Shown here: in pieces, positions 1 through 50,012 of the stretch | Numbering within the stretch: the stretch's first letter is position 1 | Layout of the letters: every line of letters begins with the position of its first letter | DNA from: Escherichia coli | GTDB taxonomy: Bacteria > Pseudomonadota > Gammaproteobacteria > Enterobacterales > Enterobacteriaceae | Length of the DNA stretch: 50,012 nucleotides | Assembly: GCF_003334315.1 (NCBI RefSeq) | Contig: NZ_QOWR01000033.1 | Direction: 5' to 3' (one strand) | Program-made: the position numbers and the translations under genes | The notes under the pieces: model-generated | Told to the model about the DNA's origin: nothing | What the model saw: only the letters and a program-made list of their open reading frames with translations | Databases searched by the model: none

Positions 1-438
1 AGGCCGCAGTCGGTAACCTCGCGCATACAGCCGGGCAGTGACGTCATCGTCTGCGCGGAAATGGACGAACAGTGGGGCTATGTCGGGGCTAAATCGCGCC
101 AGCGCTGGCTGTTTTACGCGTATGACAGTCTCCGGAAGACGGTTGTTGCGCACGTATTCGGTGAACGCACTATGGCGACGCTGGGGCGTCTTATGAGCCT
201 GCTGTCACCCTTTGACGTGGTGATATGGATGACGGATGGCTGGCCGCTGTATGAATCCCGCCTGAAGGGAAAGCTGCACGTAATCAGCAAGCGATATACG
301 CAGCGAATTGAGCGGCATAACCTGAATCTGAGGCAGCACCTGGCACGGCTGGGACGGAAGTCGCTGTCGTTCTCAAAATCGGTGGAGCTGCATGACAAAG
401 TCATCGGGCATTATCTGAACATAAAACACTATCAATAA
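1..438 (+). CDS. insB: IS1 transposase InsB, 5'-truncated by the window edge
   Basis: Frame 1 is open from position 1 and reads ...[31 protein letters not shown]..., continuous with the 61..438 ORF. Confidence 0.9.
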
Positions 439-453
439 GTTGGAGTCATTACC
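1..453 (+). mobile_element. IS1, 3' portion ending at the right inverted repeat (...caataagttggagtcattacc); element continues beyond the window start
   Basis: Terminal sequence matches the IS1 right end from memory; InsB reading frame runs in from the window edge. Confidence 0.9.
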
Positions 454-855
454 GACGAAGATTTAAAAGCGCTGCCGGAAAAAGGCGGTTATTTGTGCCT
501 GTTTGACGTCGATAAATTCAAAAACATTAACGACACCTTCGGTCATTTGCTGGGCGATGAAGTGTTGATGAAAGTGGTGAAAATCCTTAAATCACAGATC
601 CCGGTAGATAAAGGTAAAGTCTACCGCTTCGGCGGTGACGAATTTGCGGTGATTTATACGGGTGGAACGCTGGAAGAGTTGCTATCGATTCTAAAAGAAA
701 TCGTTCATTTCCAGGTGGGAAGCATTAATTTAAGTACCAGTATCGGTGTAGCACATTCAAATGAATGTCCTACCGTCGAACGCTTGAAAATGCTGGTGGA
801 TGAGCGGCTGTATAAGAGTAAGAAAAACGGCAGGGCACAGATTAGCTGGCAGTAA
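454..855 (+). pseudogene. dgcI: 3' fragment of a diguanylate cyclase gene (GGDEF domain, RFGGDEF motif), 5' end replaced by IS1
   Basis: Frame is open from the IS1 junction at 454 with no upstream start; GGDEF motif in the translation; position next to rimO matches E. coli yliF/dgcI. Confidence 0.7.
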
Positions 856-865
856 TCATTATTCG

Positions 866-895
866 CAGGCCGGACAAATGATTTTGCCCGGCCTG
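866..895. terminator. Hairpin between convergent dgcI fragment and rimO (caggccgg...ccggcctg)
   Basis: Inverted repeat read directly from the sequence. Confidence 0.5.
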
Positions 896-901
896 AATTA
901 A

Positions 902-2227
902 TTAAACCCGGCTACCCCACAAATCGTACTCATCGGCGTGCTCGACTTTCACACGCAGGATATCACCCGGCTTAACGTTGGTTTCACCATTGAGATAAAC
1001 CGCGCCGTCGATTTCCGGTGCATCTGCCATGCTGCGACCAATTGCGCCTTCTTCGTCCACTTCGTCGATAATCACCAGAATTTCACGGCCCACTTTCTCT
1101 TGCAGGCGCTCGGCGGAAATCTGCTGCTGCAGCTGCATGAAACGGTTCCAGCGTTCTTCTTTCACTTCTTCCGGAACCTGGTCAGGCAGGGCATTGGCGT
1201 CTGCACCTTCAACCGGGCTGTATTTAAAGCAGCCAACGCGATCCAGACGCGCTTCTTTCAGGAAGTCGAGTAGCATCTGGAAATCTTCTTCCGTCTCGCC
1301 AGGGAAGCCGACAATAAAGGTTGAGCGTAGGGTCAGTTCCGGGCAGATTTCGCGCCACTGTTTGATGCGCGCCAGTTGGCGATCTACAGAACCCGGACGC
1401 TTCATCAGTTTGAGAATGCGCGGGCTGGCGTGCTGCAACGGAATGTCCAGATACGGCAGGATTTTGCCTTCTGCCATCAGTGGGATGACGTCGTCCACAT
1501 GCGGATAAGGGTAAACGTAGTGCAGACGTGTCCAGATCCCCAGTTTCGATAACTGTTCGCACAGGCTGACCATGCTGGTTTTTACCGGCTCGCCGTTGTG
1601 GAAGCCAGTACGATGTTTAACATCAACGCCATAGGCGGAAGTATCCTGCGAGATCACCAGAATCTCTTTAACGCCCGCATCTACCAGACGTTTCGCTTCA
1701 CTTAACACTTCGCCAATCGGACGGCTCACCAGGTCGCCGCGCATAGACGGAATAATGCAGAAGGTGCAGCGGTGATTACAGCCTTCAGAAATTTTCAGAT
1801 AGGCATAATGACGCGGCGTCAGTTTCACACCTTGTTCTGGCACCAGGCTCAGGAATGGGTTGTGTTTCGGTTTCGGCACGTAGTGATGAACGTGCTCCAG
1901 AACCTGCTCATAGCTATGAGGCCCGGTGATTTCCAGCACTTTCGGGTGGACTTCGCGGATCTGATCTTCTTTTGCCCCCAGACAACCGGTCACAATAACC
2001 TTGCCGTTTTCATTCAACGCTTCACCAATGGCTTCCAGTGATTCTTGTACCGCGCTGTCAATAAAGCCGCAGGTGTTGACGATCACCATGTCCGCATCGT
2101 CATAGCTCGGTACCACGTCATAACCTTCAGTGCGGAGTTCGGTGAGAATACGCTCTGAATCAACAAGGTTTTTCGGACAGCCAAGGGAAACAAAGCCGAT
2201 TTTCGGCTGGGGAGTTACTTTGCTCAT
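902..2227 (-). CDS. rimO: Ribosomal protein S12 methylthiotransferase RimO (radical [11 protein letters not shown] motif)
   Basis: 441 aa ORF; N-terminus [21 protein letters not shown] and radical-SAM cysteine motif. Confidence 0.95.
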
Positions 2228-48734: not shown

Positions 48735-49003
48735 GGAGGCTAACTTCTTGTTTACTAGTAAGCTGTTGAAAGAAATGGTAATTTACGATAATGTTTTTTA
48801 CCAGAATTCAGGGCGCAGATTCATTCAGCGCACCTAAACGATAGTAAAGTAACAATATATTTTACTAGTGTAATCACATTAGGTATCAACGGCTATATGA
48901 ATTGCGTTGGCCTATATTAGCATGGAATGCGAAGCGGCTTTATCTTACTGAACGCCACACTGGCGAAAAATGTGTTCGATAGACGCAGTGTCAGGAGGAA
49001 CGA

Positions 49004-49381
49004 GTGAAACATAAACAACGTTGGGCGGGGGCAATCTGCTGTTTTGTCCTCTTCATTGTGGTGTGCCTTTTTCTGGCGACGCACATGAAAGGCGCTTTTC
49101 GGGCTGCCGGGCATCCTGAAATCGGCTTGCTATTTTTCATTCTTCCTGGAGCAGTCGCCAGCTTCTTTTCACAGCGTAGAGAAGTCCTGAAACCTCTGTT
49201 TGGCGCAATGCTGGCGGCACCCTGTTCGATGCTCATTATGCGGCTGTTTTTTTCACCGACGCGCTCATTCTGGCAAGAGCTGGCATGGTTACTAAGCGCG
49301 GTGTTCTGGTGTGCGCTGGGGGCACTGTGTTTCTTATTTATCAGTAGTTTGTTTAAACCACAGCACAGAAAAAATCAGTAA
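49004..49381 (+). CDS. ybjM: Inner membrane protein YbjM
   Basis: 125 aa hydrophobic protein; synteny. Confidence 0.8.
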   Translation: MKHKQRWAGAICCFVLFIVVCLFLATHMKGAFRAAGHPEIGLLFFILPGAVASFFSQRREVLKPLFGAMLAAPCSMLIMRLFFSPTRSFWQELAWLLSAVFWCALGALCFLFISSLFKPQHRKNQ

Positions 49382-49410
49382 AGCCCTCAACGCGAGGGCT
49401 TGTCAGACGA
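49381..49410. terminator. Hairpin between convergent ybjM and grxA (gccctc aacgc gagggc)
   Basis: Inverted repeat read directly. Confidence 0.5.
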
Positions 49411-49668
49411 TCAGGCGTCCAGATTTTCTTTCACCCATGCAGCAAAATCGGTATAGCCGCCGATATGTTGCTGATCGACAAAAATCTGCGGCACGGTTTC
49501 TACGGGTTTACCTGCCTTTTGTTGTAGATCTTCTTTAGTGATCCCTTCCGCACGAATATCTACATACTGATACTGAAAATCATCGCGTTCATTGCTCAAT
49601 TTCTCAGCCAGATCTTTTGCACGCACACAGTAAGGGCAACCCGAACGACCAAAAATAACGGTTTGCAT
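49411..49668 (-). CDS. grxA: Glutaredoxin 1
   Basis: Start at MQTVIFGRSGCPYC; CPYC active site. Confidence 0.9.
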   Translation of the reverse strand: MQTVIFGRSGCPYCVRAKDLAEKLSNERDDFQYQYVDIRAEGITKEDLQQKAGKPVETVPQIFVDQQHIGGYTDFAAWVKENLDA

Positions 49669-49808
49669 TATTTCTCTCCTCATAGATTTATGCCTGTAAT
49701 GATCACGCTAAAATGTATTCGCTGAAAGTAGGTTTAACCTGTTGCATTAATTGCTAAAAGCTATAACTGTTAAACACAATACAGTGAAAAGTTTTAGACT
49801 GAAGGCTC

Positions 49809-50012
49809 GGTGATGATGCCAACTTACTGATTTAGTGTATGATGGTGTTTTTGAGGTGCTCCAGTGGCTTCTGTTTCTATCAGCTGTCCCTCCTGTTCAG
49901 CTACTGACGGGGTGGTGCGTAACGGCAAAAGCACCGCCGGACATCAGCGCTATCTCTGCTCTCACTGCCGTAAAACATGGCAACTGCAGTTCACTTACAC
50001 CGCTTCTCAACC
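49809..50012 (+). mobile_element. IS1, 5' portion beginning at the left inverted repeat (ggtgatgatgccaacttactgat); continues beyond the window end
   Basis: IRL and insA 5' sequence match IS1 from memory. Confidence 0.9.
49864..50012 (+). CDS. insA: IS1 InsA, 3'-truncated by the window edge (GTG start)
   Basis: Translation [48 protein letters not shown]. Confidence 0.8.

Follow-up and report, generated by a model that had tools for sequence, protein, structure and literature searches.

Two same-orientation IS1 copies around a prophage-bearing segment of the Escherichia coli chromosome, very probably the result of separate simple insertions

Direct-repeat IS1 copies are known as the flanks of composite transposons such as Tn9. 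Homologous recombination between direct repeats leads to deletion or amplification of the DNA that they enclose, and the IS1-flanked r-determinant of NR1 and the argF region provide examples of IS1-associated deletions and amplifications. In the E. coli chromosome, deletions of 11-66 kb adjoining IS1 have been described in the nfsB region (PMC10569738). The window analysed here, i.e. the whole 50,012-bp stretch of E. coli DNA (contig NZ_QOWR01000033.1), resembles Tn9 in that direct IS1 copies surround a DNA block, and it shares with the NR1, argF and nfsB cases the presence of near-identical, sub-kilobase direct repeats around tens of kb of dispensable genes. Unlike in Tn9, however, the enclosed DNA is native chromosome found at its usual site, and the left IS1 is flanked by a target duplication of its own. 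Unlike in the nfsB-region, NR1 and argF cases, no deletion product of the interval was detected when 5,426 complete RefSeq E. coli genomes were searched with a chimeric query joining the 5' part of dgcI to ybjC. The IS1-bounded structure is real but routine, and its biology is already known. We consider it very probable that it arose by two simple IS1 insertions, independent of each other, in an E. coli lineage whose chromosome is rich in IS1.

Comparison of the window with a complete 768-bp IS1 copy of strain 4588 by BLAST gave exactly two matches, both on the plus strand (Table 1). The initial annotation had the window begin and end in same-orientation IS1 copies with borders at 453 and 49809, and both borders are exact. 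The left piece retains the 3' portion of insB', terminated by a stop codon at 436-438, as well as the right inverted repeat, which ends at 453. The frame open over positions 1-435 scores 138 bits against NF033558, the NCBIfam model for the IS1 transposase (cut-off 100), and this match, together with an insA start identical to the reference in the right piece, identifies InsA/InsB' coding sequence. Imperfect terminal inverted repeats of about 23 bp (GGTGATGCTGCCAACTTACTGAT / GGTAATGACTCCAACTTATTGAT) were recognised for both copies, the left inverted repeat of the dgcI copy being seen in a related contig (GCA_907165455.1). Thus, both resemble the IS1A/IS1R-type elements of 768 bp found in E. coli and Shigella in their identity (99.5-99.8%), inverted repeats, insA start, insB' end and 9-bp duplication, the latter predicted in the case of the right copy. 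They show no qualitative difference from usual IS1 insertions, except that both positions are private to one lineage and that a single base differs in the left inverted repeat of the right copy. This change, A for C at position 8 (GGTGATGATGCC), is the lone mismatch of the right piece. As the two pieces correspond to separate stretches of IS1, with the central 111 bp (IS1 205-315, including the A-run -1 frameshift site) in neither of them, a search for self-repeats inside the window yielded none, and the status of the copies as direct repeats is established by way of the reference IS1. Both copies are presumably full length, and 49,355 bp of DNA separate them.

Table 1. Coordinates of the features discussed in the text (positions in the window)
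Feature	Position	Strand	Basis or remark
Left IS1 piece, right-hand 453 bp (IS1 316-768)	1-453	+	1 mismatch, 99.8% to full IS1
GACGAAGAT, 9-bp target-site duplication of the left IS1 (copy on its right-hand side)	454-462	+	Complementary junction in GCA_907165455.1
3' fragment of dgcI (yliF), residues 310-442 of 442, GGDEF motif present	454-855	+	N-terminally clipped domain
rimO, bssR, yliI, gstB, dacC, deoR, ybjG, mdfA, ybjH, ybjI, ybjJ, rcdA	902-12151		K-12 order, every frame intact
P2-like prophage, about 34.7 kb, between rcdA and ybjL	12168-46904	+	14-bp core repeats, empty-site alignment
DarT-like toxin	20520-21101	+	PADLOC DarT, 1.3e-36
DarG-like macrodomain antitoxin	21106-22077	+	PADLOC DarG, 1.4e-80
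3HP candidate defence system (Hp1, Hp2, Hp3)	22739-25641	+	PADLOC, 7e-64, 2e-47, 1.5e-8
rybB sRNA gene	46891-46969	-	Rfam RF00110, 105 bits
ybjL	47049-48734	-	ORF
ybjM	49004-49381	+	ORF
grxA	49411-49668	-	ORF
Part of the grxA-ybjC divergent control region nearest to grxA, 140 bp	49669-49808		Comparison with uninterrupted sequence
TGAAGGCTC, target duplication of the right IS1	49800-49808		Predicted
Right IS1 piece, left-hand 204 bp (IS1 1-204), insA start	49809-50012	+	1 mismatch, 99.5%

The left IS1 interrupts dgcI after codon 312. The fragment that remains in the window aligns with the GGDEF profile (168 positions) from position 39 to 164, which leaves a catalytic domain without its first 38 or so positions. 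With the domain clipped in this way, the fragment is expected to produce no c-di-GMP, although cyclase pseudogenes of Shigella whose GGDEF domains are complete do remain active (PMC11327459). A 9-bp duplication predicts a complementary junction composed of the 5' part of dgcI, GACGAAGAT and the left end of IS1, and this arrangement was then found exactly in a related draft assembly, possibly of a different strain. There, a 70-kb contig with the order pdeI, dgcI', IS1 left end (GCA_907165455.1) terminates in ...TTTGACGAAGAT directly followed by GGTGATGCTGCC, the latter being the IS1 left end. The predicted fusion product, DgcI(1-312)+GDAANLLI, also has an exact record, on three contigs (two according to the cluster listing), one of which is this 70-kb contig. 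When the window and the related assembly are combined, GACGAAGAT is present on both sides of the left copy, in agreement with the 8-9 bp expected of a target-site duplication, which implies that this copy is a simple insertion. The initial annotation had proposed to extend the sequence beyond the left IS1, and the related assembly supplied both the left inverted repeat and the duplication. The earlier view that the left copy disrupts dgcI is therefore upheld, but the gene is interrupted and not simply cut short, as its 5' part persists next to GACGAAGAT and the IS1 left end. In exact look-ups, the 120-aa fragment of DgcI starting at a TTG codon is on record, and the 95-aa fragment starting at ATG returned no record. 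The assembly GCA_949766815.1, with a contig of 4.75 Mb, was considered as a finished relative with the same dgcI insertion and rejected, since its IS1 inserted independently 23 bp further downstream and has a duplication of its own.

The right IS1 does lie just beyond grxA, as first described, and its position can be refined to the leader/promoter region of ybjC-nfsA, inside the divergent control region between grxA and ybjC. It begins 140 bp upstream of the grxA ATG and, by reference to the uninterrupted sequence, approximately 20 bp ahead of the start codon of ybjC. The insertion leaves the grxA coding region and its 140-bp upstream sequence intact. ybjC and nfsA form one SoxS class I promoter unit (PMC11936445), and the location in their leader/promoter region is probably the most consequential effect of the right copy. 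At all eight places listed for a tape-measure protein identical to that of the prophage, the same prophage occupies the same site, and an IS1 between grxA and ybjC is absent from each of them.

The interval between the two copies, from rimO to grxA, is native chromosome syntenic with that of K-12 plus the prophage, as judged by comparing the ORFs of the window with the RefSeq annotation of the uninterrupted syntenic locus. In the scenario that we favour, this ordinary syntenic chromosome would already have carried the P2-like prophage before either IS1 arrived. One copy would have inserted into dgcI after codon 312, with duplication of GACGAAGAT, thereby splitting the gene and inactivating the cyclase. 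The 3' piece would be left without a promoter, the membrane/sensor part and the first 38 or so GGDEF positions. The other would have inserted into the ybjC leader, some 20 bp before the ATG. On its far side, we expect the order IS1 right end, TGAAGGCTC, ACTTTGCAGAGGGAAGCGTATG (ybjC), and if ybjC is indeed located there, ybjC-nfsA would be cut off from its SoxS-dependent promoter. Neither the dgcI-IS1 nor the grxA-IS1 junction was found in the 5,426 complete RefSeq E. coli genomes, plasmids included. In these genomes, other IS1 copies near the two sites are at different positions and have their own 8-9-bp duplications. Both insertions thus appear to be specific to one lineage outside which they were not found. 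As its closest relatives harbour at least 37-39 IS1 places per chromosome, it is no surprise to find another IS1 in the same orientation within 50 kb. The significance of two lineage-specific insertions, one of which inactivates the cyclase DgcI while the other likely uncouples ybjC-nfsA from its promoter, is small beyond strain-level annotation.

That both ends of the window fall in IS1 most likely has a technical origin. One short-read contig of run SRR3824135, which opens 27 bp within IS1, aligns with the window over 10,429 bp without a single mismatch. In addition, the longest contig with the 120-aa DgcI fragment measures 49,410 bp, i.e. 49,355 + 55, and spans exactly from IS1 to IS1. On the basis of this geometry, the window is probably a whole short-read contig broken at repeats. 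Contigs stop in multi-copy IS1, which accounts for the presence of the element at both ends, and it is chiefly the way in which short-read contigs terminate that gives the look of an 'IS1-bounded segment'.

It is possible, although we hold the idea only tentatively, that the insertions have been selected and not just tolerated. The IS1 in the ybjC leader would lower nfsA expression, a first step to nitrofuran resistance, and that in dgcI would remove an active cyclase. Eighteen complete genomes have a same-orientation IS1 within about 0.5 kb in ybjC/nfsA, at no fewer than nine distinct positions, as opposed to approximately four expected by chance. The knock-out of nfsA by IS1 is a known resistance route (PMC8767348), and nfsA is truncated or uncalled in three of the loci retrieved with the tape-measure protein. 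Four independent IS1 insertions within 34 bp of dgcI also point in this direction, but such clustering looks like target-site preference, and the count for dgcI among complete genomes (four) equals the chance expectation. Support for selection comes from sequence comparison. In any case, selection is compatible with two simple insertions rather than an alternative to them. A more elaborate proposal is that the ybjC-leader IS1 is an adaptive knock-down of nfsA that reduces nitrofuran susceptibility and belongs to a recurrent class of ybjC-nfsA IS1 insertions at ten or more independent positions, many in livestock-associated E. coli, and that it forms with the dgcI copy a substrate for the one-step loss of the 50-kb block, including the defence-carrying prophage. 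We regard this composite claim as doubtful.

According to another explanation, the right IS1, or both copies, would mark a rearrangement brought about by IS1, be it an inversion, a translocation, an adjacent deletion or the like, and the block would no longer precede ybjC-nfsA. IS1-rich genomes are often rearranged, and the far flank of the right IS1, which lies beyond the window, could be a breakpoint. The 11-66-kb deletions next to IS1 mentioned above likewise set a precedent in E. coli (PMC10569738). Nevertheless, the left IS1 is accompanied by matching 9-bp duplications in contigs of the lineage, a pattern that simple insertion produces and that recombination between IS1 copies would destroy, and the gene order within the block is fully native, which makes a rearrangement unlikely. 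Finally, the two same-orientation IS1 flanks would fit a composite transposon of the Tn9 type, with the prophage and neighbouring genes transported, in the past or still today, as a 50-kb unit. We reject this as the history of the locus and find it highly improbable. Rather than DNA foreign to the locus within one outer duplication, the interval shows the synteny of uninterrupted genomes and sits at its native position in native order. The left IS1 must have arrived alone given its own duplication on both sides, so that the block did not come as a unit. In addition, one base of the inverted repeat is altered in the right copy, and neither junction is present in the complete genomes and plasmids searched.

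With two separate insertions as the preferred reading, the pair could nonetheless serve as a recombination substrate. The copies have the same orientation, and each is about 99% identical to a single reference IS1. RecA-dependent recombination between them could therefore lead to loss of the 50.1-kb unit or to its tandem duplication. Should this happen, 15 chromosomal genes, rybB and the P2-like prophage with its DarTG and 3HP genes would be lost or duplicated by a well-understood process. The potential for deletion or amplification is therefore plausible but generic, and does not represent an observed event.

The claim that a prophage with defence cargo lies between the IS1 copies is borne out by P2-family genes and by PADLOC matches to DarTG and 3HP. 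The prophage encodes capsid, portal, terminase, integrase and replication endonuclease proteins of the P2 family. It is bordered by direct repeats of a 14-bp core, AACAAAAAACCCAT, at 12168-12181 and 46891-46904, and its attachment site is empty in other strains, strain 673 having been used for the alignment. The core corresponds to the last 14 nucleotides of rybB, and the prophage thus sits in the 3' end of this sRNA gene. P2-like prophages reportedly have variable defence hotspots between a replication gene and the portal gene, as Rousset and colleagues are said to have described in 2022. The present prophage has the P2 structural and replication modules in common with them, and its low-GC DarTG and 3HP cargo is located between the replication endonuclease and portal genes. 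GC content is 31-41% in 1-kb windows from 20001 to 26000, which places DarTG in the low-GC hotspot. The adjacent genes of the putative DarTG system are predicted to code for a DarT DNA ADP-ribosyltransferase and a DarG macrodomain protein. Their scores against the NCBIfam equivalog models, 54 and 231 bits, are under the respective cut-offs of 150 and 250, suggesting divergent members of these families. In the candidate 3HP system, three consecutive genes match Hp1 to Hp3, the match to Hp3 being weak. Relative to the closest complete genomes, the combination of cargo genes differs and coverage of the prophage is at most 91%, with otherwise nothing notable. In the collection, 99 blocks have an entry for the identical tape-measure protein. 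In the RefSeq annotation of the syntenic locus, the 3HP genes are described as hypothetical.

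With the complete 768-bp IS1 of E. coli strain 4588 as the reference, exactly two matches are found in the window, both on the plus strand, and the direct-repeat status of the two copies rests on this comparison. The boundaries at 453 and 49809 and the common orientation proposed in the initial annotation are thus exact. As the two pieces span different parts of IS1, the window holds no internal repeat between them. In the left piece, an uninterrupted reading frame scores above the cut-off of the NCBIfam IS1 transposase model; the right piece contains the beginning of insA together with the left inverted repeat. 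In the window sequence as given, the sole mismatch of the right piece is an A for C at window 49816, position 8 of the left inverted repeat.

Features of the window and IS1 insertions in dgcI
Feature	Window position	Strand	Details
Left IS1 piece	1-453	+	IS1 positions 316-768, 1 mismatch
Right IS1 piece	49809-50012	+	IS1 positions 1-204, 1 mismatch
Prophage 14-bp core AACAAAAAACCCAT	12168-12181 and 46891-46904		bounds of the prophage
rybB sRNA gene	46891-46969	-	Rfam, 105 bits
grxA	49411-49668	-	
dgcI IS1 insertion, window lineage			duplication GACGAAGAT
dgcI IS1 insertion, strain 4588			duplication GAAAATCC
dgcI IS1 insertion, GCA_045574525.1			same site as strain 4588, opposite orientation, 93%-identical IS1 isoform
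dgcI IS1 insertion, GCA_949766815.1			duplication GGAAAAAG, 23 bp downstream

By our estimate, a random 50-kb window would have both ends inside IS1 with a probability of the order of 1e-5 to 1e-4, so the window is most simply explained as an entire short-read contig that ends in repeats. The longest public contig with the same DgcI fragment measures 49,410 bp, i.e. the 49,355-bp interval between the two copies plus 55 bp, as expected for a k-mer-limited contig running from IS1 to IS1. Taken together, the window ends lack only IS1 positions 205-315, making the window 111 bp shorter than the 50,123-bp circle or repeat unit expected of IS1-IS1 recombination. We read this shortfall as a contig-end effect.

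The left copy was initially described as disrupting dgcI and leaving a GGDEF fragment. Window 454-855 indeed codes for DgcI residues 310-442 of 442, including the GGDEF motif, but the GGDEF domain is incomplete. The fragment's alignment to the 168-position profile covers positions 39-164 only; the catalytic domain is thus cut short, and the membrane and sensor part is lost as well. Because the insB' stop at 436-438 shares the reading frame of the dgcI fragment, a fusion protein is excluded. Shigella cyclase pseudogenes with nonsense mutations before a complete GGDEF domain can still produce c-di-GMP (PMC11327459); as the domain is incomplete here, this caveat probably does not apply.

The other left junction was predicted beforehand on the basis of the 9 bp that IS1 typically duplicates: GACGAAGAT at the end of the dgcI 5' part, then the IS1 left end, yielding DgcI(1-312)+GDAANLLI. 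A 320-residue product identical to this prediction is on record. Its carriers include a 70-kb contig of GCA_907165455.1 with the order pdeI, dgcI', IS1, whose junction DNA reads ...TTTGACGAAGAT followed directly by GGTGATGCTGCC... The window-type junction, IS1 followed by GACGAAGAT, also occurs in short-read assemblies, and a contig from run SRR3824135 is identical to the window along 10,429 bp. The target-site duplication proposed as a check is therefore present on both sides of the left copy, in two assemblies that we infer to represent one lineage. The matching duplications point to a simple insertion and argue against an inter-IS1 rearrangement at the left end.

The right copy lies just beyond grxA, as first noted, and starts 140 bp upstream of the grxA ATG. 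The putative OxyR-binding region of the grxA promoter remains on the grxA side. Alignment with strain 673 gives the uninterrupted sequence as ...GAAGGCTC joined to ACTTTGCAGAGGGAAGCGTATGCGC..., with the ybjC ATG some 20 bp past the insertion point, which places the right IS1 in the ybjC leader. In strain 673 itself a separate IS1 lies 23 bp further along, and its duplication, AGCGTATGC, overlaps the ybjC ATG. PMC11936445, citing Paterson et al., reports that ybjC and nfsA are co-transcribed from a class I SoxS promoter that lies upstream of ybjC. If ybjC is on the far side, the right IS1 would cut this operon off from the SoxS promoter.

The interval consists of native chromosome and, as initially annotated, a prophage with defence cargo. 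The native genes follow the K-12 order, and every frame is intact (rimO, bssR, yliI, gstB, dacC, deoR, ybjG, mdfA, ybjH, ybjI, ybjJ, rcdA, then ybjL, ybjM and grxA). This native site and order, together with the left IS1's own duplication, rule out that the block arrived as a composite transposon. The P2-like prophage, of ~34.7 kb, lies between rcdA and ybjL and has the 3' end of rybB as its integration site. The RybB terminator ends with the 14-bp attachment core and is restored by the phage side, so that rybB is complete. A low-GC hotspot between the replication and portal genes holds a DarT/DarG-like pair and a three-gene 3HP system (20520-25641); the pair is divergent, with both NCBIfam scores below the curated cut-offs. 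In the closest complete genome, 3HP is present and another gene takes the place of DarTG. Prophages with an identical tape-measure protein occupy the same site in many assemblies without IS1 beside grxA (all eight places listed), and the prophage is thus older than the IS1 insertions. Its tail-fibre region (38316-39591) has oppositely oriented cassettes of tail-fibre-assembly gene and fibre C-terminus, like an invertible host-range segment; no invertase gene was found in that region, and the related prophage of the closest complete genome has a recombinase gene at the matching place (L004 39961-40527).

As direct repeats of 768 bp, nearly identical and 49 kb apart, the two copies would be a substrate for RecA-dependent unequal exchange. 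This could give either a tandem duplication of the unit or a loss of 50.1 kb, after which a single IS1 would separate the dgcI 5' part from ybjC. Such a deletion should be viable, as K-12 is not known to require any of the enclosed chromosomal genes. In clinical E. coli, deletions of 11-66 kb associated with IS1 have been observed (PMC10569738). Neither event is in evidence here, and a chimeric query found the dgcI 5' part and ybjC within ~800 bp in none of 5,426 complete E. coli genomes. Of the proposal that the pair mediates deletion or amplification, the direct-repeat structure is correct, and the functional part is generic.

Neither window junction occurs among these 5,426 genomes. Same-orientation IS1 within ~0.5 kb is present in four of them in the dgcI region and in eighteen, many from livestock, in the ybjC/nfsA region, at nine or more distinct positions. 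At the ~13 IS1 places per genome seen in the junction searches, we estimate that chance alone would give about four genomes for an interval of this kind; dgcI is at expectation and ybjC/nfsA about fourfold above. This excess fits the known selection of nfsA knock-outs by nitrofurans (PMC8767348). Among loci with the identical tape-measure protein, two (L007 and L008) have an nfsA of 194 aa instead of 240 aa, and in a third (L014) nfsA is not called. The IS1 positions and altered nfsA may be a footprint of nitrofuran selection. The closest backbone relatives have 37-39 or more IS1 places per chromosome; mean spacing is therefore ~120 kb, and a second copy within 50 kb has an estimated chance of about one in three, with a one-in-two chance of the same orientation. 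The initial observation and structure stand as two lineage-specific insertions in an IS1-rich E. coli, which is already-known biology. The pair is of low importance and conspicuous mainly because contigs end in IS1.

Elsewhere, in many unrelated assemblies (L015-L023; 118 collection blocks), dgcI is divided between an N-terminal product of 299-334 aa and the same 120-aa GGDEF product. The pattern suggests that frameshift or nonsense mutations frequently make dgcI a pseudogene, in a look-up biased to lesions near codon 320. Some genomes (L015, L018 and L021) have a RelE/HTH toxin-antitoxin pair between dgcI and rimO, absent from the window. A 34-bp stretch of dgcI has received four independent IS1 insertions (window 443-485, codons ~306-320; L001, L021 and L024) and looks like a local IS1 target hotspot.
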